DNA of 64,000 nucleotides, from sequence record NC_047776.2, one strand, 5' to 3'. Positions 16,870-34,050 of this stretch are shown piece after piece (position 1 is the stretch's first letter; the number at the start of each line of letters is the position of its first letter). Source of the DNA: Escherichia phage ESCO5. The notes under the pieces are model-generated. The model made no database searches, was not told the origin of the DNA, and was given only the letters and a program-made list of their open reading frames with translations. Made by a program: the position numbers and the translations under genes.

Positions 16870-19023
16870 ATGAAACAAGCTATATTTACTGTCACGCGAG
16901 ACAAGAGAGTAAATGCGAGTTCATTTAACTACACGACTGTTGATGGAACAGCAGTCGCTGGTAGAGATTATATTGCAAAATCGGGAACACTTGTGTTCCC
17001 TGATGATGCTGATTCTGCTACCATTGTGGTTGAAGTATTTGAACGACCAAAGAACTCAATAGATCTTAACTTCTCCCTCCAAGTTTCAGGGATTAGTCAA
17101 AATAACATGATGGTTGAAACGACCATCAACTGTATTATAACTACGATTCAAGAAAATACTACTCCAATAACTTGGACTACAAAAGACGTTAAAATGTTCT
17201 CTCCTATGTATTGGACAATAGATTCTCAAGCAACGGAAAGTTGTTCTATTGTATCTCATGGAGACTCTTTTACTGCAAGATTTGTAAACAGAACAACAGC
17301 AGGTTTGGCAGGGGTTATCTGGAGCACAGTTGACAAATATGACCATAAAGGTGTTGGGTATTTACCCCACACAGATTTAAGTTCAGAGAAACTTTGGTTT
17401 AAAATGGAAGTTAGTCAAAACATGCCAGGTTTTAAAGAAGAACCTTTGGTGCCAACTTTGACTGTAACTCTCTTGGATAAAAGTGTCCACTATGTTAGTT
17501 TAGGATTTTATGCTTCAGATATTTCAGAAGATGGTAAAACAGCTACAATCAAACTAGATTTTGGTAATATCTTCTCTGGTCCTAATAATGATATTCCTTT
17601 GGACATGAGTGCTGTAGATAATATTTTCTTCTCTTTGATTACAGCAAGGTATGAAGAAATAGAAGAGATTGTACCTATTGATAGTCAAGAGGCTTGGTTT
17701 ACTTTCACTCTTCTTGAACCTACTTCTGGTTATAGTATGATGAAAGTCAGTAACCTTGTCCAGCCTGAACATGATATTCGCATGTGCACATCTTATGACG
17801 ATATGTATAACCTGACTCCAGAGAGAGTTATTTATAATACATATGCGCTAGGTTATCGTGGAATGATTAACCATTACAACGGAATGTCTCACTATTATGA
17901 GTTCTCATGGAACGGAACATCTTGGGCTTTAAATAGATCTGTCTTCCTGAATCCAGCTACAGAAGCTTGGCTAAATAGTTTCCATTCTATAGCGAACGAG
18001 AAGGGTTACACAATAATGAACTCTTTAAGTTTTGAGTTGATGAGCACAGTTTGTCCTGTAGAATGGGTCCAGCATGATTGGAACGATGCTCTTGCAGCAA
18101 CAGGGTATGAGCCTCCTAGTTACGTGTTGTCTCCAACTATTGACGAAGGTATGAAATATTTGCAAAATGTTATTAATAAAATAGCATCTATTTCGCAAGC
18201 TAATAATATTCCAGTTGTCATTCAAATTGGTGAGCCTTGGTGGTGGTATAATACAGCGAGTAAAATGCCTTGTATATACGATTACACTACTAAACTAGCA
18301 TTCAACACAGAAACAGGTTTATTTGCACAAGATGTAGGAACAATAGATAATTATAAAACAGGAACACCGTTTGACGAATACTATGCATTTTTGTCTCGTA
18401 AACTAGGATTAAGAGTTGCAAAGTTTGCAACAGATACTAGATTAGCCTATCCTGGAGCTAAAGTTACATTATTACCATTTGTGCCATCCATTTTAGGTAA
18501 CGGTATGATGGAGTTTGTTAACTTCCCTAAAGATTATTATATCCCAGAAAACTTCGACTTTTATTGTTCAGAGTGTTATGACTGGTTGTTGGAAGGTAAG
18601 ATGGAAAAATCTTTTGACGCTATCACAATACCTAATGAACAATTAGGTTTTAGTTATGATAAGATACATTATCTTGCAGGTTTTGTTCCAGATGCTACTC
18701 TTGCACCTTTGTATAGCTTTGATCCTGAATCAAACTACCGCACGTATCTTTGGAAAATGATTATAGGTAACATAGTGTTGAACGCCAATAAGTTCAATGG
18801 ACTTACACAATATATATGGGCCTATCCTCAAATAATGCACGATTCTATCACGGTAGTTAATTCTCAATCCCAAGTTTTCTATATGGGTAACGTGCCTTTG
18901 AACGTTTATTTACAGGATATCACTCTTAAACAGGTAAATGTTGAGATTGCCACCATAAGTGGAATTACATTAGCCACTAAATCTGGAGAAGATTTAGTAA
19001 CAACACAAAAATTTTATATATAG
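16870..19023 (+). CDS. tail fibre protein
   Basis: 717 aa ORF in fibre cluster. Confidence 0.5.
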   Translation: MKQAIFTVTRDKRVNASSFNYTTVDGTAVAGRDYIAKSGTLVFPDDADSATIVVEVFERPKNSIDLNFSLQVSGISQNNMMVETTINCIITTIQENTTPITWTTKDVKMFSPMYWTIDSQATESCSIVSHGDSFTARFVNRTTAGLAGVIWSTVDKYDHKGVGYLPHTDLSSEKLWFKMEVSQNMPGFKEEPLVPTLTVTLLDKSVHYVSLGFYASDISEDGKTATIKLDFGNIFSGPNNDIPLDMSAVDNIFFSLITARYEEIEEIVPIDSQEAWFTFTLLEPTSGYSMMKVSNLVQPEHDIRMCTSYDDMYNLTPERVIYNTYALGYRGMINHYNGMSHYYEFSWNGTSWALNRSVFLNPATEAWLNSFHSIANEKGYTIMNSLSFELMSTVCPVEWVQHDWNDALAATGYEPPSYVLSPTIDEGMKYLQNVINKIASISQANNIPVVIQIGEPWWWYNTASKMPCIYDYTTKLAFNTETGLFAQDVGTIDNYKTGTPFDEYYAFLSRKLGLRVAKFATDTRLAYPGAKVTLLPFVPSILGNGMMEFVNFPKDYYIPENFDFYCSECYDWLLEGKMEKSFDAITIPNEQLGFSYDKIHYLAGFVPDATLAPLYSFDPESNYRTYLWKMIIGNIVLNANKFNGLTQYIWAYPQIMHDSITVVNSQSQVFYMGNVPLNVYLQDITLKQVNVEIATISGITLATKSGEDLVTTQKFYI

Positions 19024-19031
19024 GAGTAAAA

Positions 19032-21797
19032 ATGTCAACTACAATTACTAATTTACCCGAAACATCAAAAGTTAATGGTTCTGATTACCTGGTTTTAGAC
19101 CAACCTGATAAGACTGTTAAAAGCACAGTTTCCAACTTTCTTACTGACACTGGGGTGGTTTTAGCCACCCAGTTAAAAGATATTTCTGGAGCTACCAAGT
19201 ACCCAGAACTTCAAATGTCACGCTGGAGAGATGAAGGTGATCCTAGAGGATGGGGAGCAGTAGGTGACGGAGCAACAGACGATACCAATGCCATAACACA
19301 GCTTCTTGCTGCTATGCCTGATGGATGGATTATTGATGGGCGTAATCTCACTTTCAAGGTTACAACACTACCAGATATAAGCAAGTTTAAAAACGCTGCT
19401 TTTGTTTACGAGCGTATTGTTGGACAACCCCTTACTTATGTATCTGAAGGTTTCTTCGATGGAAATCTGACAAAGATTACGGATACACCATTTTACAATG
19501 CTTGGACGCAAGATAAGACGTTTGTTTATGACAATGTTATATATGCACCATTTATGGCTGGCGAACGTCATGGTGTACAAAACCTCCATGTAGCGTGGGT
19601 TAAATCAGGAGATGATGGACAAACTTGGTCTATGCCAGAATGGTTAACTCCAATTCATCCTGATTATAATGCCTCTTCAGCAAACAAAGTTAACTATCAT
19701 TGTATGAGTATGGGCGTATGTGGTAATCGCCTATATGCAGTCATCGAAACCCGTTATTTATCTAACATGCGATTGAAGAAAGCAGAACTTTGGTCACGTC
19801 CAATGCCTTATTATAGAAGGCCAACTGGAGGTATAACAATTAGTTCTGGGTCTACTACGGCGACGATTGTTTTAGAAAAGCATGGTCTTAAAGTTGGAGA
19901 TGCTGTTAACTTTTCCAATTCAGGTGCAACTGGTGTATCTGGAAATATGACTGTTGCATCTGTAATTAACAAGGATACATTTACTGTTACATTAGCGAGT
20001 GCTGCCACATCTAATATAGATAATACAGGAACTACTTGGCATTTTGGAACACGTTTCTGGGATAGCCCTTGGGAAATTACAGAATTACCAGATGTTGCCT
20101 ATTCTACTAATGCAGACTTATGTGTTACAGAAACCCATAGTTTTACAGTTATAGATGATGATAATTACACTTTTGCTGTGGGTTATCACAATGGTGATGT
20201 TTCCCCAAGAAGATTAGGTATTTTGTATTTCAATAATGCTTACTCTGACCCAAGTTCTTTTACTCGTAGAACAATTAGTCAAGAATATGCTGACAATGCA
20301 GCAGAACCCTGCATTAAATATTATGATGGAATTTTATATTTAACTACTAGGGGTACTTCAACTTCTGCTGCTGGTTCTACATTAGCAATGAGTGCTGACC
20401 TTGGAGAAAACTGGAATTACTTAAGATTTCCTAACAACGTTCATCATACAAACCTACCATTTGCAAAAGTTGGTAACTACCTTTATATCTTTGGTACAGA
20501 ACGTTCATTTGGAGAATGGGAAGGAGAAGAACTAGATAATAGATATAAAGGTACGTATCCTCGAACGTTTATGTGCAAGATTAATGTATCTGCATGGCCT
20601 GCATCTTTATCCGATGTTCAATGGTTTAATATCACCGATCAGATGTATCAAGGGCATATTGTTAATTCTGCATGTGGTGTTGGTTCGGTATGTGTTAAAG
20701 ATGGTTGGTTATATTATATCTTTGGAGGCGAAGATTTCTTATCTCCTTGGTCTATTGGGGATAATAGTAAAAAATTATGGTACAAGCACGATGGTCATCC
20801 AGCCGATTTATATAGCTATAGACTAAAGATTACCGAACATGATTTTGTATCACGTGATTTCAAATATGGAGCTACGCCAAACCGTACATTGCCTGTATCT
20901 ATGGGTACAGATGGGGTAAGGCATGTCTCAGCCCCTGTAACTTTTGATAATGATGTGCAAGTACACTCTTTAACAGTTACTGGTCTTGAGCATGATGGGA
21001 CACAACAATCTGCCGTTAGAATAAAATTAGATGGTGATTATGGGGTTGTTGCAAAAAATGTCCCAATAAAAAATCCTTCTGAACAGCGACTAATCTTATG
21101 TGGAGGAGAAACTCCTTACGTTACTGATGGATCGCTATTACAACTATATGGTTCAAACCATACGTATCCAAACAGAGCAGTTTTATATGCCCCAGGAGGA
21201 GCATATACCCAAAATAATTTCATGCCATATTTAGATGGACAAGTTGCATTAGGTGGTGCATCTAACAGATGGTCAGAAGTGTACGCATCTACAGGAACCA
21301 TTAATACTTCAGATGGAACATTAAAAACTAAACCTACAGAGATTGAAGATATTTTACTGAAAGCGTGGGAAGATATTCATGTAATCTCTTATCAATGGCT
21401 GAGTGCTATCGCGGAGAAAGGAGATTCTGCGCGTATTCATTTTGGTGTTATAGCTCAAGATGTAAGAGATATTCTGATTAATTATGGTTTAATGGATGAA
21501 AATAGCACTGATTGTAAGTATGCTTTTCTGTGTTATGATGAATACCCTGCTATGTACGATAGTGTTGTTACGGGACAAAAAGAAATCCCTTTATTTGATG
21601 ATGAAGGGAATGTTGTAATTGATGAAGAAGGTAATCCAGTAACAATCGTAGAAGATGTTGTAGAAACTATCGAAATAATTCCAGCAGGATCGCGATGGGG
21701 TATCCGCGCTGACCAAATGTTTTTTATTGAGATGGCTTATCAACGTAAAAAGTTAAAAGCTCTTGAAGAAAGACTTGCAACCCTGGAAAGTAAATAA
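19032..21797 (+). CDS. tailspike with C-terminal intramolecular chaperone (peptidase S74-like) domain
   Basis: 921 aa; GAVGDGATDDTNAI pectate-lyase-type motif; C-terminal TSDGTLKTK...IHFGVIAQDV...LEERLATLESK resembles self-cleaving chaperone of endosialidases and L-shaped fibres. Confidence 0.6.
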   Translation: MSTTITNLPETSKVNGSDYLVLDQPDKTVKSTVSNFLTDTGVVLATQLKDISGATKYPELQMSRWRDEGDPRGWGAVGDGATDDTNAITQLLAAMPDGWIIDGRNLTFKVTTLPDISKFKNAAFVYERIVGQPLTYVSEGFFDGNLTKITDTPFYNAWTQDKTFVYDNVIYAPFMAGERHGVQNLHVAWVKSGDDGQTWSMPEWLTPIHPDYNASSANKVNYHCMSMGVCGNRLYAVIETRYLSNMRLKKAELWSRPMPYYRRPTGGITISSGSTTATIVLEKHGLKVGDAVNFSNSGATGVSGNMTVASVINKDTFTVTLASAATSNIDNTGTTWHFGTRFWDSPWEITELPDVAYSTNADLCVTETHSFTVIDDDNYTFAVGYHNGDVSPRRLGILYFNNAYSDPSSFTRRTISQEYADNAAEPCIKYYDGILYLTTRGTSTSAAGSTLAMSADLGENWNYLRFPNNVHHTNLPFAKVGNYLYIFGTERSFGEWEGEELDNRYKGTYPRTFMCKINVSAWPASLSDVQWFNITDQMYQGHIVNSACGVGSVCVKDGWLYYIFGGEDFLSPWSIGDNSKKLWYKHDGHPADLYSYRLKITEHDFVSRDFKYGATPNRTLPVSMGTDGVRHVSAPVTFDNDVQVHSLTVTGLEHDGTQQSAVRIKLDGDYGVVAKNVPIKNPSEQRLILCGGETPYVTDGSLLQLYGSNHTYPNRAVLYAPGGAYTQNNFMPYLDGQVALGGASNRWSEVYASTGTINTSDGTLKTKPTEIEDILLKAWEDIHVISYQWLSAIAEKGDSARIHFGVIAQDVRDILINYGLMDENSTDCKYAFLCYDEYPAMYDSVVTGQKEIPLFDDEGNVVIDEEGNPVTIVEDVVETIEIIPAGSRWGIRADQMFFIEMAYQRKKLKALEERLATLESK

Positions 21798-26193: not shown

Positions 26194-29100
26194 ATGGCAA
26201 CATTCCCAACATATCCAGCAACGTCTCTCGAACAGGGCGTAGACCTGGTTATTTTCTCATCTAACCAACTCCATGATGTTATTAATGGAAGTGCTACAGA
26301 GAGTATTGAAACAGAATCAGGGTTGATACCAACCCTGAGAAAATCCCTTGTTGACAACTTTTTCTTTAAAAGCCCATTGGATTGGGCGCAAGGCACAAAC
26401 GAAACAGTTTTTAACCAACTACGTTATTTTCAGAATGGGGTATTGAGCGGTTATTATTATGCTCCTAATGCTACATTGGTAAACCCAATTCCTATGCAAG
26501 GGACTCCAGTAGGAGATAACAACTGGGTATTGTGGGGACTGAAGACAGAACAACTAGCAACAGAAGTCACCCCTTGGGTATATTCTGGTGCAACTGGTTA
26601 TGAAACAGTAATCAGTCCTCCCTACATCTTTGATAGTGCTATTGTTACAATCAATGGTGTTATTCAGGTTCTGGGAGAAGCTTTCCGCATAGAAGATAGT
26701 AAAATCATTTTATCTGAACCTTTGGGACATGATCCTGCAACAGGACTGCCAAACAAGCTTTTTGCCTATATTGGTAAAATCGTAGCTTCCGCAGATACAG
26801 ATCCTAACTTAGAAAACCGTCTTGTCAGTTTAGAAACAAAAACTGAAGAACTGACAGAAAACATGGATAAAGTACCTTTACAAACTATTGCTCGTAAATA
26901 CGGTTTGTTGGATGACGAAGTAGCTTACGCAACAGCGGGTCAATCATTAACAGGGATTAAAGCTCTGTATGATCCGGTAGCACAATCTTCCTACACATTG
27001 CCTCCTAACATCACAGGGACTTTAACATCTTTGTCTGTTTCTGGAGTAATGACTTATTCTGGCGGATCTGTAGATCTTTCTGCATTAGCTGTTGAACGTG
27101 GACAGTTTGTTCATTTGCCTACAAGCTTTGGTAATAATGTAACTCTGACAGCTAAAAATCAGACGATTGGGCGTGGCGCTGGTCGCTATCGTTGGGCGGG
27201 AAGTTTACCAAAAAGTATTTTAGCTTCTGATACATTGGAAACAAGTGGTGGATTAGGTCCAAATGCATGGGTTCTAACTAATACAGAAGGACTGTTAACC
27301 CCTCGTGGTGGAACATACAACGATTTATTCGATGTTGTCCGCTTATCAGAATTTGCTAACAATACAACTACCTATACCACACCAGAAGCAGCTTTCCAGG
27401 CGGCACTGTTAGCAGCAAAAGCTTCGAAAAGTAAGATTCTCGACGCTTACGGTTGTGATATGACTTTCACGACAAGCTCTTTTGATATTCAAGATATCAC
27501 TTTGCGTGGGGGTGTGTTCCGTGGTCAACGCGATTATCGTGTGCAAAATGCTACAGTAGAAGGCACAACTTTCCGTAACTCTCGTGTTATGTATTGGGGT
27601 GGTGCTGTGCGCATGTTCGATTGTTTGTGGGACGGTGCTCCTCGCGCAGGTCAAGTTGGTAGCTTGGTATTCCAAGGAAACCCAATATCAGGTACTTTTG
27701 AAATTGATAATTGTACTTTTAAAAACGGGTTATATGGCATCCTTCAACAAGGAACAGGGGAACCAGTAACACGCGGTGTCTTCCGTAACCTTACCTTCAT
27801 GGACATGCAAGGTGATGCAATAGAACTGAACGTCATCAATAAACATTATGATGATGGTTGTGTGATTGAGAATATTTACCTGTCTAATATTGATGGGACT
27901 AACGCTCCTATTCCTCTGTCCAACTGGGGTATCGGTATTGGTGTGGCTGGTAAAGGACCATATGGTTACGGAATTCCTGATGATCAATATTGCAAGAATA
28001 TTACAATTCGTAACGTTTTTGCAAAACGTTGTCGTCAGATTGTCCACGTAGAAGTTGGTCGTAATATTTCTATCGAAAACATTCATGGCGATCCAGATCA
28101 AACTGTATCTGTTGGGACAGGTTTGGCAACTGGCGCAGTTGTAATGTATGGAAGTAAAGATTTTACGATTGATGGTGTTTACGGAGAGCCTAAAACAGAC
28201 GGTAGCACACTTGCAAGTAATATCCGTATGATTTATTTGGAGTGGGGAACTAACGCAGTTCTGGATGAAGAGGGCAATCCGGTAGTTCCGGCACAGGGCA
28301 GACCTTCAAACCCATGCTTTAACTATTCTGTTCGTAACATTCACACCAAAACTGGGCGTGTTTTTGCAGGAGTTTCCGCTGGGCCAGGTTATGAAAACAG
28401 AGTCAGCTTTGAGAATATCCATTGTGCTGCGTTGCAGTTGTTCGGTGTAGCTTCTTGGCTTTCAATGTCTAACATCACCTGTAATATCTTTGATTGTGTT
28501 GGTCAACCTGAATCTGGTCCAGGGACATTTTATGATGGATTCTTCCGTAGAGAAAAATCTGTTCTTGAGATGGTTAACGTAAACTGTTACCCAGATGGCA
28601 AGACTATGGTTACTGGTCGCCCACAGTGGAGCCGTTGCCGTTACTCTGATATTCATCGTGTCAACTGTAATGTTGAAGCTAATATGTATACCAATATCGC
28701 AGGTGGTATTGGAGCTATTGTAGGGACAACTGGCAAAGTTTATTACTTAGAGCCTAACCCTAGCCGAAACATTGATGGGATGCATTTCCCAACAGGGAAG
28801 GAGTTTGACAAAGGGGATATGATAGTCAAAGCGGATAATACGTTCTTCCTTGTAACAACAAGTGGGGCATACATTCCAGATATCCCAGCTTTCGGTATTC
28901 GAGCTACACAAGCAGGAGATACCTTCCTGACACAGAACTTGACTCCTAATGGGACAGCAACAAACGCTTCTTGGTTGTATCACTATCCTCTGTCAGCAGG
29001 AACACGTATCCGTATTCCTGGTGCTGGTGTAGGTGGAGCAGATTTGGACACAGTTATTACTCGTGCACCTTATCAAGATAATGATACGTGGACTAACCCA

Positions 29101-29247
29101 GTTAAAATAGACATTGCAGATCCAATTGTAACGCCTACGAGTGCTGGAGTTAGAATCAAAACCATACCTAACGATTCTAGTAATGTTTCTGTAGGTAATA
29201 CTGCGGTTATTCGCCCAACACCAGTGGTAGATGTGCCAACAACCTAA
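26194..29247 (+). CDS. tailspike, right-handed parallel beta-helix (pectin-lyase fold)
   Basis: 1017 aa; repeated NxxVxNxxF / GxxI beta-helix rungs (e.g. VFRNLTFMDMQGDAIELNVINKHYDDGCVIENIYLSNIDGTN). Confidence 0.6.
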   Translation: MATFPTYPATSLEQGVDLVIFSSNQLHDVINGSATESIETESGLIPTLRKSLVDNFFFKSPLDWAQGTNETVFNQLRYFQNGVLSGYYYAPNATLVNPIPMQGTPVGDNNWVLWGLKTEQLATEVTPWVYSGATGYETVISPPYIFDSAIVTINGVIQVLGEAFRIEDSKIILSEPLGHDPATGLPNKLFAYIGKIVASADTDPNLENRLVSLETKTEELTENMDKVPLQTIARKYGLLDDEVAYATAGQSLTGIKALYDPVAQSSYTLPPNITGTLTSLSVSGVMTYSGGSVDLSALAVERGQFVHLPTSFGNNVTLTAKNQTIGRGAGRYRWAGSLPKSILASDTLETSGGLGPNAWVLTNTEGLLTPRGGTYNDLFDVVRLSEFANNTTTYTTPEAAFQAALLAAKASKSKILDAYGCDMTFTTSSFDIQDITLRGGVFRGQRDYRVQNATVEGTTFRNSRVMYWGGAVRMFDCLWDGAPRAGQVGSLVFQGNPISGTFEIDNCTFKNGLYGILQQGTGEPVTRGVFRNLTFMDMQGDAIELNVINKHYDDGCVIENIYLSNIDGTNAPIPLSNWGIGIGVAGKGPYGYGIPDDQYCKNITIRNVFAKRCRQIVHVEVGRNISIENIHGDPDQTVSVGTGLATGAVVMYGSKDFTIDGVYGEPKTDGSTLASNIRMIYLEWGTNAVLDEEGNPVVPAQGRPSNPCFNYSVRNIHTKTGRVFAGVSAGPGYENRVSFENIHCAALQLFGVASWLSMSNITCNIFDCVGQPESGPGTFYDGFFRREKSVLEMVNVNCYPDGKTMVTGRPQWSRCRYSDIHRVNCNVEANMYTNIAGGIGAIVGTTGKVYYLEPNPSRNIDGMHFPTGKEFDKGDMIVKADNTFFLVTTSGAYIPDIPAFGIRATQAGDTFLTQNLTPNGTATNASWLYHYPLSAGTRIRIPGAGVGGADLDTVITRAPYQDNDTWTNPVKIDIADPIVTPTSAGVRIKTIPNDSSNVSVGNTAVIRPTPVVDVPTT

Positions 29248-29255
29248 TGGAAATA

Positions 29256-29282
29256 GAGAGGGGGATTCCCCCTCTTCTTCCA
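29256..29282 (+). terminator. stem-loop / terminator
   Basis: GAGAGGGGG-att-CCCCCTCTC followed by TTCTTCC. Confidence 0.5.
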
Positions 29283-29311: not shown

Positions 29312-31336
29312 ATGAATTTAACAAGACCTAATAGTGCGATAGCCGATCTAGTAGAAGCTACTTATCGAAAACGTCGCAGTTTTGAGGCAGGTTTTACATT
29401 ACGTAATTCCCGTGAAGTTTTGCTGTTAGCGGCAGAAGGGAATTATTACCAATGGAAAGGAACTTTTCCTAAAGTAGTTCCAGCAAACTCTACGCCAGCC
29501 ACCACAGGTGGTATTTCTTCCCTTGCATGGCAAAGTGTTGGGACCGCTGATGATATAGCAATTATCAATGCCAAGTTTACGGCAATGCAGCAACAGATTG
29601 ATGATCTGTCGGAAACAATACCTGAAGCTGGTAAATCGGCTTATCAGATCGCACTTGATAATGGTTTTGTTGGAACAGAAGCACAATGGCTTGCTTCTTT
29701 GAAAGGGGATACTGGTGCTCAACTTAATATTAAAGGATCATTAGCAAGCACTAGTGAACTACCATCTACAGGTAACGTAGCAGGTGATGGTTATATTGTA
29801 GGAGATGTAATCTACGCTTGGGATGGGGCTGTTTGGAAACTTATCTCTTCTCTTGGGCCAGAAGGGAAATCAGCTTACGAGGTATGGTTAGCAGATGGTA
29901 ATACAGGATCTGTTTATGACTTTCTTGCCTCTATAAAAGGTGATAAAGGAGACGTTGGTCCTACAGGTCCACAGGGTGCACCTGGTGTCAACGCTAATGG
30001 TTTTGATTACCGTGGAGATTTGCCTTCTACAAGTAACTTACCACAACCTAACTCTGAAAACGTAAGCCAAGCTTATTCTATTAATGGTAATCTTTATGTC
30101 TCTAATGGGACAGCTTGGGTCAACATGGGTAATATTGTTGGTCCTCAAGGTCCACAAGGTGAGGCAGGTAAAGACGGTCTAGATGGAACAGATGGAGACG
30201 AAGGGAAATCTGCATATCAAAGTTGGCTGGATGCTGGTAATGAAGGGACAGAAGTAGATTTTATTGCCTCACTTAAAGGTCCAAAAGGAGACAAGGGTGA
30301 TCAAGGAGAGCGAGGTCCACAAGGTGAACTAGGTCCACAAGGACCAGTGGGTGCAACAGGATCAGGTTTAGAGATTATCGGGGTTCTGAACAGCGAAGCT
30401 GAACTTCCTCCTACTGGAGAAGTAGGTGATGCATATAAAATTAATAATGATTTGTATGTTTGGGTTCAAGATGCTACAGAATGGATGAATGTAGGCAGTC
30501 TTGGAGGAACATCAATTACAGCTAAAGGTCATGTTCCGAACAGTGAAGCTCTCCCTGTTTATAATAACTACGGTGATGCCTATTTAACTGAAGACACTAG
30601 TAATCTTTACATCTATACCTACGATCAAGACACCAATTCCGCATCTTTTGTTGACATGGGAAGTATTAAAGGCGACAAAGGTGAAAAAGGGGATAAAGGA
30701 GATAAGGGTGATCCTGGAACAAACGGAACCAACGGTACTGATGGGACCAACGGTAAGGACGGCGCACAGTGGTTTGTAGCAACAACTAATCCAGTCACAG
30801 GAGACGGTGTTATCAATGATTACGCCTTCAATACTACCACTGGAGCAGTATTTAAGAAAACAGATTCTTCTACGTGGACACTTATAGGAACTCTTCCTAG
30901 TATACCAGAAGCCCCTCAAGACGGCTTGACGTATGGTCGTTCTGATGGAAACTGGATCGAAATATCAGGATCAGATCCTACGGAAGCTATAACACCAACT
31001 AGAGTTACAGCAGGTTTCATGGAACTTGAAACAACTACTGCCAACTCTGGAGCATCTTGGACTCCTTCTGGAACTTCCAATATGTATGTTGTTACAGTAA
31101 CTGACGCTCTGACAGTTGGAGCATGGCCTGGTGTCACTGGCTCTACAAAACCTAAAGCGTTTTCAGCAATGATTTATTTGATTCAAGATACAACGGGACA
31201 CACGGTTACACTAGATGCGTCTTATGGAGCACTAAATGATACAGAAATAGCAACTACTGCTAACGCAGTAACAATTTTGCAATTAACGTATCCTGGTGTG
31301 GGTGATATCGTGGACATGGTTGTTGTAACACGATAA
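29312..31336 (+). CDS. tail fibre with collagen-like Gly-X-Y repeats
   Basis: 674 aa; runs such as GPQGPQGEAGKDGLDGTDGDEG and KGDKGEKGDKGDKGDPGTNGTNGTDGTNGKDG; three copies of GKSAY...(W)L(A)S(L)KG(D)KGD repeat. Confidence 0.7.
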   Translation: MNLTRPNSAIADLVEATYRKRRSFEAGFTLRNSREVLLLAAEGNYYQWKGTFPKVVPANSTPATTGGISSLAWQSVGTADDIAIINAKFTAMQQQIDDLSETIPEAGKSAYQIALDNGFVGTEAQWLASLKGDTGAQLNIKGSLASTSELPSTGNVAGDGYIVGDVIYAWDGAVWKLISSLGPEGKSAYEVWLADGNTGSVYDFLASIKGDKGDVGPTGPQGAPGVNANGFDYRGDLPSTSNLPQPNSENVSQAYSINGNLYVSNGTAWVNMGNIVGPQGPQGEAGKDGLDGTDGDEGKSAYQSWLDAGNEGTEVDFIASLKGPKGDKGDQGERGPQGELGPQGPVGATGSGLEIIGVLNSEAELPPTGEVGDAYKINNDLYVWVQDATEWMNVGSLGGTSITAKGHVPNSEALPVYNNYGDAYLTEDTSNLYIYTYDQDTNSASFVDMGSIKGDKGEKGDKGDKGDPGTNGTNGTDGTNGKDGAQWFVATTNPVTGDGVINDYAFNTTTGAVFKKTDSSTWTLIGTLPSIPEAPQDGLTYGRSDGNWIEISGSDPTEAITPTRVTAGFMELETTTANSGASWTPSGTSNMYVVTVTDALTVGAWPGVTGSTKPKAFSAMIYLIQDTTGHTVTLDASYGALNDTEIATTANAVTILQLTYPGVGDIVDMVVVTR

Positions 31337-31339
31337 CAG

Positions 31340-31366
31340 AAGCCCCGAAAGGGGCTTTCTTTTTAT
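31340..31366 (+). terminator. rho-independent terminator
   Basis: AAGCCCC-gaaa-GGGGCTT followed by TCTTTTTAT. Confidence 0.65.
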
Positions 31367-31377
31367 GGAGGGTTTAA

Positions 31378-34050
31378 ATGTTTCCAATTCCAATATTTAC
31401 TATTATGACCAGCACTGGTGTCGTTCCTCTGCCAGCAGGTATTGTTAAAAAAGTAATCACTCTAGATTACCCAGATAATGCTGGCAATTCTAATAGCAGT
31501 TTAGCAATTTTGCTTAATGATGGTAGATTGTTTACTCAAGGCGCAAACCTTTTTGGTGAGATTGCAGATGGAACTCGTAGTGCACGATTCAATAATTTCC
31601 ACTTAGCTTCTACTGTAGTAGCGGATGTGTTTACCGCAGATCGTTGTTTTGTTATTAAAACTAACAGTGGGGGATGGCAATATTCAGGATTGACAGCAGG
31701 GTTGGTAGGATCTATAGCAGCAGGTGGTACGGATGCATGTGTAACTACTTGGACCAGCTTTCCATCTGTAATAACAGGGACTATCTCTTTAGCCAATCTT
31801 AAAGAGGTTAAGGGAGGATATAACAACACTCTCTGGTTGATGAATAGTGGTGTTCTTTATGGATCAGGTCAAAACACAGTAGGCAGTTTAGGTGCAAGTA
31901 CTACTAACGAAGTTTCTACTCCTCGTCAGATAACAAGTGCAGCAGTTGCTTTTGATGCAGGTTACAACCAATGCTCTTATGTCAACAATGTGGGAACCTT
32001 GCGTGTTTGTGGGGCTAGTAAAGGTTTAGCAGGTAATAATAACACAACAACAGCTTTTGTCAATGCCAAGATATCCGCTACTGAAACAGTGTATGTCAAA
32101 GATTACATCAATACAGTTTCCCAGACAATAGTTGTAGGAGATACCTCCGGTGGCACGGGTACAGTAAACTACTTATATGTTAGATCTAATACAGAAACAA
32201 CCTACACTAAACTGGACACCTTTGCAGCAGGTTTCTCAACATGGAAATTTCCACCAAGCCGCCACTCTTTTTTCGTTGGGATCAATAATTCCTTGTGGGC
32301 TATTGGTAAGAACTACACTGCAAACTTAGGTTTGGGGTATGATTCTGCGAGCGGAGATCCACTCCAAGTGGGAAAACCAGTTAAACCTGAAGGAGTGGGT
32401 TCCTGGGATATAAACAAGCTCACAAGCGTTCATACACTGAATATGGATGTTACTAACCAATTAGGTTATCAAGGAACCTTTTTCGTTTATAATGGAGATA
32501 TGTATTATTCAGGTATTTGGAAAGATGGGAAAGCCTCGTATCTGTTCAATAGTGGTCTAAACTATAATAAATTCACACCAATAGCAAGCTCCGTGATTAC
32601 AGGGGATGTTCTGGCAACTGGCTTAACTACAGATTCTTTAGGAATTTGTATTGTAGGTGGAACTAAACAGTTGACACATTCTGTTAGCCCAGAAGGAGGT
32701 AAACTTTTCAATATTAAATACACTTCTTCTGCCCCTGCAAACATGACAATATCATCTACTGGTTTAATGACTTTCCATGCAGAAGGTGGTTTTGATGCAG
32801 GTATGACAGCCTTAAACGCTGAAGGAACAATTTTATCAGATACCTCTGGAGGATATGCTTCAACATTGAGTGTTTACACCCCTAGCTTATCTGCGATGGA
32901 TGTAGGAACAACACAAACAATGGTAGCAGAAATAACACCAACAGGAGCAGCAAGCTTACCTGATATGGTTGTTGAGTATACAACTACAGATCCTAATGTT
33001 GCTACAGTAGATCCTACAACTGGTGTAATAACTGGTGTTGGTGATGGTGGTTGTAGGATTGGTTGCACAGCTACGTATCAAGGTGTTGTTACCGCTTCTG
33101 ATAGTTCTTATTTAACGGTGAATGCTGTTGCGGGAAAGGAGTTAGCTCCATCTCCGAGTAGTAGTTTAACGGTTCTAAACGGATATTTCAACCACTCGGC
33201 AGATGGGGCAATTACGTTCCCAACTTTATCGGGTACTGTTACACCAGCTAACTTTGTAGTTAAGGTGGATGACGTTGTAGTTCCTTCAAGTAAAGTAATA
33301 TTTAGAAACAAAGCTTTCTCTACAGTGGATAGTTATCCAGCAGGAGAATATAGACTGGCTATTGAATTTGCAAGTGCTTCAGTAGTTAATAGTGTGGAAG
33401 TGTCTATGGAAGCAAACCCAAGTCTTTTAGAACTTTGGGGCGGTAATAGAATCAGTTATTCTACAAGCCCAGCCTCACAATTCTTAAAAGGTTGTGCTAA
33501 CTTAAGACGAATAACTTCTGATTGTTTTAGTAACACATCTTACACCGGAACATCTATAAGCGGTATCTTCTCTGGCTGCACAAGTTTGACAGCTATCCCT
33601 GAAGGATTATTCAGTGATGCTTTATTTCCTTCAATGACAACAATGTCAAGCACGTTTGAAGGTTGTACATCTTTAACATCTATTCCTTCAGATTTATTTA
33701 AGAATCTGTCAAAAGTTACAAGATATTCTTACACCTTTAAAGATTGCACCTCTCTTGCAGAAGTTCCAGCAGGAATGTTTGATAATATTCCAACGAAAGT
33801 GACCTCTTTAACAGCTACATTCCAAGGTTGTTTAGGACTTACAGATTTTAATAAGATCTTTAATGACAACCCAGGGTTAACTGTTTGTGGTAAACGTGGA
33901 GCATTATCTTCTTTCTTTAGTGGATGCACAAATCTTACAGGAACAGGAACAACATTAACAAATACATTAGGCGGAGTAGCTAATAGTTACCTATTCAGGT
34001 ATTGCACAAAACTTTCTGATTATAACAACATTCCTTCCGGTTATAAATAA
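31378..34050 (+). CDS. tail fibre with Ig-like (Big_2-type) and BspA-type leucine-rich repeat C-terminal domain
   Basis: 890 aa; repeated FxGCTSLTxIPxxLF units (CANLRRITSDCF, GCTSLTAIPEGLF, GCTSLTSIPSDLF, DCTSLAEVPAGMF, GCLGLTDF); TTDPNVATVDPTTGVITGVGDGG Ig-like segment. Confidence 0.6.
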   Translation: MFPIPIFTIMTSTGVVPLPAGIVKKVITLDYPDNAGNSNSSLAILLNDGRLFTQGANLFGEIADGTRSARFNNFHLASTVVADVFTADRCFVIKTNSGGWQYSGLTAGLVGSIAAGGTDACVTTWTSFPSVITGTISLANLKEVKGGYNNTLWLMNSGVLYGSGQNTVGSLGASTTNEVSTPRQITSAAVAFDAGYNQCSYVNNVGTLRVCGASKGLAGNNNTTTAFVNAKISATETVYVKDYINTVSQTIVVGDTSGGTGTVNYLYVRSNTETTYTKLDTFAAGFSTWKFPPSRHSFFVGINNSLWAIGKNYTANLGLGYDSASGDPLQVGKPVKPEGVGSWDINKLTSVHTLNMDVTNQLGYQGTFFVYNGDMYYSGIWKDGKASYLFNSGLNYNKFTPIASSVITGDVLATGLTTDSLGICIVGGTKQLTHSVSPEGGKLFNIKYTSSAPANMTISSTGLMTFHAEGGFDAGMTALNAEGTILSDTSGGYASTLSVYTPSLSAMDVGTTQTMVAEITPTGAASLPDMVVEYTTTDPNVATVDPTTGVITGVGDGGCRIGCTATYQGVVTASDSSYLTVNAVAGKELAPSPSSSLTVLNGYFNHSADGAITFPTLSGTVTPANFVVKVDDVVVPSSKVIFRNKAFSTVDSYPAGEYRLAIEFASASVVNSVEVSMEANPSLLELWGGNRISYSTSPASQFLKGCANLRRITSDCFSNTSYTGTSISGIFSGCTSLTAIPEGLFSDALFPSMTTMSSTFEGCTSLTSIPSDLFKNLSKVTRYSYTFKDCTSLAEVPAGMFDNIPTKVTSLTATFQGCLGLTDFNKIFNDNPGLTVCGKRGALSSFFSGCTNLTGTGTTLTNTLGGVANSYLFRYCTKLSDYNNIPSGYK

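Follow-up and report, generated by a model that had tools for sequence, protein, structure and literature searches.

Tail-fibre genes with a collagen-like domain are already known, and the one described here has been deposited and annotated in dozens of phage genomes. The collagen-like side tail fibre proteins EPclA-D of E. coli O157 prophages are trimeric and contain real triple helices (Ghosh et al. 2012, PMC3368898). Their collagen domains vary in length in steps of three residues, and variation by whole triplets in the collagen-like fibres of E. coli prophages has thus been on record since 2012 (PMC3368898). The EPcl proteins are composed of PfN (PF08400), PCoil, Pf2 (PF03406) and PfC (PF06820) domains and contain one or two long collagen domains of 63–322 aa. 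Streptococcal Scl1/Scl2 and Legionella Lcl are adhesins anchored to the cell wall, each with a single long collagen domain, which is rich in charged residues, lacks hydroxyproline and adjoins a non-collagen trimerisation domain. T4 fibritin has a coiled-coil shaft that ends in a C-terminal foldon (1RFO), and the foldon has been engineered onto the C-terminal side of a collagen tract, in the fusion 1NAY, to nucleate triple helices. Finally, the branched complexes formed by CBA120 TSP1-4 and by G7C gp63.1/gp66 are made of beta-helix enzymes (tailspikes).

The gene described here lies at positions 29312–31336 on the plus strand of a 64-kb window (64,000 nucleotides) of Escherichia phage ESCO5, and all of the features described below are on the same strand. 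It is an ATG-initiated open reading frame of 674 codons whose product, a lateral (side) tail fibre protein, matches the profile of PHROG 15437, 'tail fiber protein', over its full length. The window is 100% identical in nucleotide sequence to Escherichia phage vB_EcoM_REC (Phapecoctavirus, OM386667), and the gene corresponds to phAPEC8_00179 of phAPEC8 (97.9% nucleotide identity) and to 'TfpM2' of the Wecvirus phages (PMC12695924). It has previously appeared under the names tail fibre, "collagen triple helix repeat protein" and "lateral tail fiber protein with type I collagen domain", the last being the annotation used for the counterparts with about 59–60% amino acid identity in the BASEL phages JohannJBalmer and EmilieFrey. 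This is an ordinary, previously annotated and known kind of phage fibre. The orthologous genes of Phapecoctavirus and Stephanstirmvirinae phages are the same gene in the same position and differ in nothing essential; what varies is how many Gly-X-Y triplets tracts 2–4 contain, together with the tip sequence.

The surrounding fibre/spike locus encodes an endosialidase, an N4 gp64-like protein, a colanidase and an RCC1/Big_2 protein. The fibre gene is placed between the colanidase and RCC1/Big_2 genes, an order common to orthologous fibre loci. A terminator-like hairpin (31339–31358) follows directly 3' of the stop codon, and terminators are annotated at the equivalent site in phAPEC8 and ASO2A.

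Like the EPcl proteins, the ESCO5 fibre has proline-poor Gly-X-Y domains, flanking trimerisation domains and length differences in multiples of a triplet (PMC3368898). Unlike them, it has four short tracts that are interleaved with two repeated modules, termed M and R, together with a Tail_spike_N anchor and a foldon-like element, and a Pfam search at E ≤1 finds none of PF08400, PF03406 and PF06820 on the protein. The charge-rich, hydroxyproline-free tracts and the adjoining trimerisation element are also reminiscent of Scl1/Scl2 and Lcl. However, the NCBIfam similarity to the Scl/Lcl families (E 1e-16 to 1e-8) falls far below the cut-offs (61 bits vs 400) and is confined to the repeat, so the ESCO5 protein is not a member of either. 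In contrast to the enzymes of the CBA120 and G7C complexes, it is a thin, non-enzymatic, collagen-like fibre.

The N-terminal anchor domain (aa 12–79, 29345–29548) belongs to Pfam PF18668, Tail_spike_N, matched over aa 12–77 (71 bits vs a cut-off of 25, E 9e-20), a family whose name refers to TSP1/Gp66. A phmmer search of the PDB with this domain returns 9vvr, 5w6h, 4oj5 and 4qnl, which include CBA120 TSP3/4 and G7C gp63.1. In the AF2 model the domain is predicted with a pLDDT of 78–87 and adopts the fold of the family's solved head domains, with Foldseek matches to 4qnl (E 5.5e-5), 9d84 (4.6e-4), 6nw9 (1.2e-3) and 4oj5 (2.2e-3), each at a probability of 1.00. When the whole model is compared with the PDB, this domain is the sole region matched, again to G7C gp63.1 and the CBA120 TSPs. 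The N-terminal domain would dock the fibre onto another baseplate or fibre protein and, by analogy with CBA120 TSP1/3 and G7C gp63.1, may plug it into a branched fibre/spike complex at the baseplate. The upstream colanidase, which has its own internal Tail_spike_N domain at aa 302–361, is a candidate hub for this docking. The anchor is followed by a single long helix (aa 80–103, 29549–29620; residues 81–102 in the AF2 model), which is probably a short trimeric coiled-coil neck.

The shaft contains four uninterrupted Gly-X-Y tracts, which total 97 residues. Tract C1 (aa 210–225, 29939–29986) has 6 glycines and is invariant in length among orthologues, C2 (aa 277–298, 30140–30205) has 8 and varies between 5 and 11, C3 (aa 323–350, 30278–30361) has 10 and varies between 9 and 10, and C4 (aa 454–484, 30671–30763) has 11 and is the most variable of the four, with 3–13. 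Glycines in runs of at least four occupy 35 positions, whereas 2000 shuffles of the same protein average 0.7 and never exceed 9. Moreover, Pfam PF01391, Collagen, matches four stretches of the protein with 46.3 bits, above the gathering threshold of 27.2 (E 3.6e-12). Proline occupies 26% of the X and 6% of the Y positions, and about 46% of the X and Y positions in the tracts are charged.

Three chains would come together as a trimer, in which each of these short, proline-poor and charge-rich tracts (6–11 triplets) would wind as a collagen triple helix. The same tracts could be read as flexible glycine-rich linkers joining small domains that fold independently, with the periodicity a relic of ancestry. 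Their shortness (16–31 residues) and the scarcity of proline would suit such linkers, as would their lack of structure in the AF2 monomer (pLDDT <50), although a triple helix cannot appear in a monomer model. Against this, glycine occupies every third position without a break in all orthologues and every indel in a tract is a multiple of three residues, a register that is demanded by triple-helix packing and not by a linker. The high content of charged residues is shared with bacterial collagens that lack hydroxyproline, as seen in the Pfam and NCBIfam Scl/Lcl similarity, there is a trimerisation element beyond the last tract and triple helices are real in related prophage proteins (PMC3368898). 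Hence, it is very unlikely that the tracts are simple linkers.

The first of the two repeated modules, M, is a 26-residue unit that starts with GKSAY at aa 107, 185 and 298 and has the consensus G-x-S-A-Y-x-x-A/W-x-x-x-G-x-x-G-x-x-x-x-W/F-L-x-S-L-K-G. A profile HMM built from distant homologues only (P0028–P0120) recovers exactly three copies at 42–58 bits, and AF2 predicts each copy as a helix-turn-helix of two short helices. These are M1 (aa 107–132, 29630–29707; 58.4 bits, helices 110–116 and 123–130), M2 (aa 185–210, 29864–29941; 42.3 bits, helices 188–194 and 201–208) and M3, which is located between C2 and C3 (aa 298–323, 30203–30280; 46.6 bits, helices 301–307 and 314–321). The best 120 homologues contain 526 full copies of M, with a maximum of 21 in a single protein. 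One or more Gly-X-Y triplets lie directly after 85% of these copies and directly before 78%, the mean glycine fraction for comparison being 0.16.

The second module, R, is a beta repeat of about 45 aa with four predicted beta strands. An HMM built only from distant homologues recovers four copies, namely R1 (aa 138–182, 29723–29857; 56.6 bits, four AF2 strands with pLDDT 80–86), R2 (aa 231–276, 30002–30139; 42.7 bits) and the adjacent R3 and R4 (aa 353–398 and 402–453, together 30368–30670; 52.8 and 24.3 bits), and AF2 agrees at each. A divergent R-like module, R5 (aa 485–529, 30764–30898; AF2 strands 487–527), is missed by this independent HMM and is detected only by an HMM of the gene's own copies. 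It is kept ahead of the foldon-like element in many homologues and can be described as a 'pre-foldon' beta module.

Both M and R are very common in phage fibres, yet neither has a family in the Pfam copy searched or a solved structure. For M, sequence and profile searches of the PDB find no solved relative and a full-text search of the literature for the motif strings returns only noise; DUF2934 shows a faint summed similarity on the distant homologues P0028 and P0074 and is absent from the 674-aa protein. For R, the sole PDB profile match is to phiKZ gp184, a capsid-interior protein, and this weak hit (E 9e-5) was not taken as meaningful.

Directly after R5 there is a foldon-like trimerisation hairpin (aa 531–552, 30902–30967) with the sequence IPEAPQDGLTYGRSDGNWIEIS. 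With phmmer this segment matches fibritin and foldon chains at E 0.003–0.03, and a profile of the foldon-like family matches the T4 foldon (1RFO) at E 3e-8, a value that is partly circular since the members were picked by a regular expression. The element and the T4 foldon have in common the motif IPEAPxDGxxYxRxDGxWxxI. Pfam PF07921, Fibritin_C, gives no match to the 674-aa protein at E ≤1 and scores 37.2 and 30.3 bits in the homologues P0020 and P0028 against a cut-off of 21. AF2 places a beta hairpin at 541–550 with a pLDDT of about 55. The hairpin lies on the C-terminal side of a collagen tract, the same layout as in 1NAY. The ESCO5 fibre differs from T4 fibritin in that its shaft is collagen-like rather than a coiled coil and in that the element is internal, with a 122-aa domain after it, whereas the foldon of fibritin is C-terminal.

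This last domain, the C-terminal tip (aa 553–674, 30968–31333), is a beta-sandwich with an XD1/CpaA/StcE-like fold and has a precomputed Pfam match to PF26209. A homologue search with the domain alone returns just three fragments. The tip is probably the receptor (glycan) binding end of the fibre and would bind a surface glycan. However, a fold of the XD1 type serves as a spacer in T4 gp9/gp10 and in TSP4, which makes glycan binding a putative role of the tip. In the CBA120 and G7C tailspikes the XD1-like domain is found near the N-terminus, whilst in the ESCO5 fibre it occupies the distal end. A BLASTP comparison of the tip with the N-terminus of the colanidase, as possible paralogous XD domains, was negative (E 0.95).

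The original prediction had described a tail fibre gene with several Gly-X-Y runs separated by three GKSAY copies. The tail fibre identity is borne out by the full-length PHROG match and by the Tail_spike_N and Collagen scores, and the latter, from the profile search that had been proposed as a check, is above its cut-off. The Gly-X-Y runs, with the two quoted strings found at aa 277–298 and aa 453–484, and the three GKSAY copies are likewise real and far beyond chance, with the proposed pattern exact in copies 2 and 3 and a W in place of F in copy 1. The Tail_spike_N anchor, the four copies of the 45-aa R repeat with its divergent fifth, the foldon-like hairpin and the 122-aa XD1/CpaA/StcE-like tip had all been missed. 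The significance of the locus extends little beyond confirmation, but the module map (anchor, three M, four or five R, four tracts, foldon-like element and XD1-like tip) could inform the engineering of fibres in therapeutic phages of the phAPEC8 type.

The foldon-like element, together with M and R, would keep the three chains in register, such that each short tract could wind into a triple helix. The role of M and R as registration modules is a conjecture because M has no solved relative and R has only a weak one. It is possible, though rather doubtful, that M represents an undescribed small trimerisation or registration module. If true, M, inserted in phase into Gly-X-Y sequence, could nucleate and realign short hydroxyproline-free collagen helices and would represent a natural counterpart of the foldon 'staple'.

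At the DNA level, the repeats within the gene are short and imperfect. Tandem Repeats Finder reports periods of 9 or 18 nt, with 2.3–5.1 copies and 68–91% matches, all inside the tracts apart from a 10-nt period just upstream of C2 (30105–30130; 2.6 copies, 75% matches, score 31). The longest exact repeat within the gene is 15 nt, and the gene does not contain the long near-perfect tandem repeats expected of a simple-sequence contingency locus. The lag-9 nucleotide identity of the tracts is 0.592, compared with 0.607 +/- 0.014 under synonymous-codon permutation; the 9-nt periodicity does not go beyond what the encoded protein imposes, and by this permutation codon choice neither suppresses nor enhances the repetitiveness of the tract DNA.

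The orthologues range in length from 653 to 681 aa. The tracts make up 112 of the 704 columns of their alignment and contain 51 of the 70 gap columns (P = 1.5e-30). All of the tract indels are multiples of 3 aa (3, 6, 9, 12, 15, 18, 21 and 27 aa), and the total number of tract glycines varies from 27 to 37, with the differences in tracts 2–4. The metagenomic orthologues P0002 and P0003 are one triplet apart in tract 4. Two near-identical phages have clean deletions in the same tract: ASO2A lacks 9 nt (30715–30723) of a GGAACnAAC repeat and iGC_PHA_EC001 lacks 18 nt (30688–30705) of an AAAGGnGAn repeat. These are the two clean in-frame length variants, alongside two doubtful ones, among the approximately 41 matches listed at ≥96% nucleotide identity.

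Such changes could be taken to indicate a contingency or hypervariable locus, in which the nucleotide periodicity is a hotspot for recombination or slippage and fibre length changes rapidly for host range. This is the suggestion of the original prediction taken at its full strength. The concentration of indels in the tracts, the two clean deletions among the matches listed at ≥96% nucleotide identity and the single-triplet difference between P0002 and P0003 are in its favour, but the 2025-nt length of the gene is kept in 47 of the 51 matches listed at ≥89% nucleotide identity, tract 1 never varies and neither the quality of the repeats nor the lag-9 identity is exceptional. Moreover, a 9-nt unit makes on/off frameshifting impossible. 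Rapid switching of this kind is therefore very unlikely. The data are much more in keeping with our reading, which we hold with good confidence, that the gene encodes a side (lateral) tail fibre of a Phapecoctavirus myophage, one of several, with a modular collagen-like shaft whose tract lengths drift slowly by whole Gly-X-Y units. The tracts would gain or lose whole units (9 nt) over evolutionary time, most likely through slippage during replication, or unequal exchange, in the imperfectly 9-nt-periodic DNA. Each change would shift the reach of the fibre by a few nanometres and leave the reading frame and the triple-helix register intact, as a slow drift with no switching mechanism. Of the recombinational length variation originally proposed, the in-register tract indels are thus real, whilst the GKSAY copies and the nucleotide periodicity were overstated as its driver; likewise, the proposed comparison of gene length among relatives reveals the 9- and 18-nt tract deletions, but against a background of largely unchanged length.

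A further possibility is that the GKSAY copies, or the larger M-C-R modules, act as substrates for homologous recombination, with gain or loss of whole modules and large changes in length. The spread of module numbers in distant homologues is certainly wide, the best 120 containing 0–21 M, 0–10 R and 0–10 foldon-like elements with 13–167 Gly-X-Y triplets, and two phages related to ESCO5 appear at first sight to provide examples. In phage EP57, an in-frame deletion of 486 nt removes aa 318–480, but its junction has no homology, the genome is 130.7 kb and neighbouring genes are also truncated. It was rejected as a case of module recombination and may stem from faulty assembly or belong to a deletion mutant. 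The 76-nt tandem duplication of M1 in phage SKA64 was also rejected, as it disrupts the reading frame, and the CDS in that record is annotated as truncated. No other gene within the window contains M, R or Gly-X-Y modules that might serve as ectopic recombination partners. The GKSAY copies share 56–64% nucleotide identity, have no run of identical bases longer than 8 and are for this reason not recombination substrates. Module recombination within the gene is hence very improbable, and M is kept at three copies in all 14 orthologue clusters.

The side tail fibre gene is a single ATG-initiated open reading frame (window 29312-31336, plus strand) encoding 674 residues, and its collagen-like part consists of four uninterrupted Gly-X-Y tracts, C1 (residues 210-225, 6 Gly), C2 (277-298, 8 Gly), C3 (323-350, 10 Gly) and C4 (454-484, 11 Gly). 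These four tracts make up 97 residues, with proline at 26% of X and 6% of Y positions and around 46% of positions charged. Runs of at least four hold 35 glycines in total; when the same protein was shuffled 2000 times, the mean was 0.7 and the highest count 9. The GKSAY motif occurs at residues 107, 185 and 298, each time starting a 26-residue unit, termed M, with glycine at both ends, and an M HMM for which only distant homologues (P0028-P0120) were used scores these three copies, and no others, at 42-58 bits. Since the tracts lie beyond the shuffles and M is recovered by an independent HMM, the original prediction of collagen-like runs together with three GKSAY copies is confirmed, and both of the Gly-X-Y strings that it quoted are present.

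The shaft follows the order M1-R1-M2-C1-R2-C2-M3-C3-R3-R4-C4-R5, where R is a second internal repeat that had been missed. R is about 45 residues long, has its copies within window 29723-30670 (residues 138-453) and at 30764-30898, and has the consensus x-I-x-G-x(6)-L-P-x(5)-G-D-x-Y-x(4)-L-x-V-W-x-G-x-x-W-x(3)-G. An R HMM from distant homologues only finds four copies (24-57 bits); R5 (residues 485-529) is picked up solely by an HMM made from the gene's own copies, and for that reason is better called a putative divergent pre-foldon module. Ahead of the shaft, Pfam Tail_spike_N scores 71 bits (cut-off 25) on residues 12-77, which also match, in both sequence and fold, the head domains of CBA120 TSP1/3/4, G7C gp63.1 and others; a long helix follows at residues 81-102 in the AlphaFold2 model. 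This monomer model, made with 24 sequences and having a mean pLDDT of 66, presents each M as two short helices and each R as four strands (pLDDT 72-86), with the Gly-X-Y tracts below 50, as is expected when one chain must give a triple helix.

The last collagen tract and R5 are immediately followed by a foldon-like element, IPEAPQDGLTYGRSDGNWIEIS (residues 531-552, window 30902-30967), with a modelled hairpin at residues 541-550. It resembles the T4 fibritin foldon in a single-sequence search (E 0.003-0.03), and a profile of the homologues' foldon-like elements matches the foldon peptide 1RFO at E 3e-8, a value that is partly circular because the profile members were chosen by regex. Pfam Fibritin_C matches in homologues support the resemblance independently; the Pfam search reported none on the fibre protein itself. 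Unlike the foldon of T4 fibritin, which is C-terminal, this element is internal, and the collagen-foldon arrangement known from engineering occurs here naturally. The final 122 residues (553-674) form the tip, which is placed in family PF26209 by precomputed Pfam assignment and is modelled as a beta sandwich (pLDDT 80-91). Its fold relatives are the same proteins that are given for the XD1 fold in the TSP4-N paper, according to which this fold binds glycans in CpaA and StcE but serves as a spacer in T4 gp9/gp10 (PMC8825819). Given these two roles, glycan binding by the tip is plausible by analogy.

Among the 120 best homologues each protein contains 0-21 copies of M, 0-10 of R, 0-10 foldon-like elements (up to 10 in tandem in distant homologues) and 13-167 Gly-X-Y triplets; M and R are a common tool-kit of phage fibres. 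M sits within the collagen register: across 526 full copies, at least one triplet follows directly in 85%, at least two in 60%, and a triplet directly precedes in 78%, against a mean glycine fraction of 0.16. In the Pfam copy searched, no family is dedicated to M, and no solved relative of it was found. DUF2934 shows a faint summed similarity to two distant homologues, P0028 and P0074, but not to the fibre protein, and R finds only a weak match among solved structures, phiKZ gp184. Two such very common modules without a curated family in that Pfam copy, and without a solved structure, are worth remembering. The Pfam search found no PfN, Pf2 or PfC domain on the fibre protein, which therefore falls outside the EPcl group, and it is not an Scl/Lcl adhesin, as it scores far short of the cut-offs for those families.

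The gene is found in 69 phage records. Its nucleotide identity is 100% with Escherichia phage vB_EcoM_REC and 97.9% with phAPEC8, where it is phAPEC8_00179, a 'putative phage tail fiber protein'. Elsewhere it is annotated as, among others, 'tail fiber protein', 'tail spike protein' or 'collagen triple helix repeat protein', and the BASEL phages have it as 'lateral tail fiber protein with type I collagen domain'. The 681-residue orthologue of related Wecvirus phages was named TfpM2 in 2025, and the 890-residue downstream gene TfpM1 (PMC12695924). The orthologous group, PHROG 15437, is well populated, and Pfam Collagen as well as Tail_spike_N scores above threshold. The gene, the collagen domain and length variation in triplet units are all already on record, and the feature is ordinary, with no departure from known phage fibre biology. 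Records labelled with other hosts (OP562383, MG065650, OR584014, MH252123) also contain the gene: Acinetobacter phage vB_AbaM_ABPW7, Campylobacter phage B15 and Klebsiella phage ZCKP1 at 92-97.6% identity to coliphages, and Pseudomonas phage PsgM04F at 74.7%. Either these labels are doubtful or the phages infect a strikingly wide range of hosts.

It had further been proposed that nucleotide periodicity could drive recombinational length variation of the fibre, which holds only in part. In an alignment of 13 full-length orthologues (61-99% identity, 653-681 residues) the variation is mostly in the tracts, which span 112 columns and hold 51 of the 70 gap columns where about 11 would be expected (P = 1.5e-30). 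All tract indels are multiples of three residues, and the number of glycines is invariant in tract 1 and ranges over 5-11, 9-10 and 3-13 in tracts 2, 3 and 4. A 9-nt deletion in ASO2A (window 30715-30723, inside GGAACAAAC-GGAACCAAC) and an 18-nt deletion in iGC_PHA_EC001 (30688-30705, inside an AAAGGnGAn run) are textbook slippage in 9-nt periodic DNA. Two further variants are doubtful and may reflect faulty assembly or deletion mutants from the laboratory. EP57 (OR544956) has a 486-nt in-frame deletion of residues 318-480 with a junction lacking homology, in a 130.7-kb genome that is some 20 kb shorter than its relatives and has truncated neighbouring fibre genes too; in SKA64 (OM362897) a 76-nt tandem duplication of M1 breaks the reading frame. 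A tail fibre with tracts of changing length is supported, but a strong recombination driver is not. The M copies share 56-64% nucleotide identity, with no unbroken identical stretch longer than 8 bases, and the longest exact repeat within the gene is 15 nt. Of the 51 phage records listed with ≥89% nucleotide identity, 47 have a gene of the same length, the exceptions being the four phages just named. TRF returns 2.3-5.1 copies with 68-91% matches. Lag-9 identity is 0.592, against 0.607 ± 0.014 under synonymous-codon permutation, and hence the 9-nt periodicity simply follows from the protein sequence; recent duplication has not amplified it, nor has it been suppressed. M, R and Gly-X-Y modules are absent from all other genes of the 64-kb window.

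From the domain order, repeats, fold predictions and indel pattern, all of which are observed, we infer how the fibre may assemble and function. Three chains would associate in parallel, held in register by the foldon-like hairpin and probably by M and R too, and the four short tracts would form collagen triple helices, their 97 residues, at 0.286 nm each, extending over about 28 nm, to give a thin segmented rod. The N-terminal domain would dock this rod on the branched fibre/spike complex whilst the tip would contact a surface glycan. Each Gly-X-Y unit gained or lost would shift the reach by about 0.9 nm with frame and register undisturbed, so that such changes would be tolerated and slowly accumulate. 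An experimental precedent exists in E. coli O157 prophages, whose collagen-like tail fibre proteins form trimers with genuine triple helices and have collagen domains differing in length 'typically [by] multiples of three' (PMC3368898).

The multi-fibre locus of these phages has been called a 'Swiss army knife' (PMC8594841). It includes an N4 gp64-like TIM-barrel protein ('non-contractile tail sheath') that also has a Calx-beta domain (16870-19023), beside a complete K1-type endosialidase tailspike with a C-terminal intramolecular chaperone, Peptidase_S74 (19032-21797), then Baseplate_J and a 1017-residue colanic-acid-degrading spike (26194-29247) upstream of the fibre gene. In this spike Tail_spike_N is not N-terminal but lies at residues 302-361, preceded by around 300 residues. 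The layout is like that of the branching proteins TSP2/TSP4 of CBA120, and by this analogy the spike may be the hub carrying the collagen fibre. In the 890-residue protein encoded downstream (31378-34050), RCC1-like beta-propeller repeats occur together with Big_2 Ig-like domains and, at the C-terminus, a weak DUF285-like repeat, an unusual fibre/spike architecture. GC-rich hairpins flank the fibre gene at 29255-29275 and 31339-31358, the latter being terminator-like with a T-run, and terminators are marked at the same two places in the public phAPEC8 and ASO2A annotations, which suggests that the fibre gene may be transcribed as a unit of its own, or attenuated. GC skew switches sign at about 34000, from +0.05 to +0.13 before 34 kb to -0.07 to -0.23 after it, coinciding exactly with the flip from plus-strand structural genes to minus-strand replication genes.
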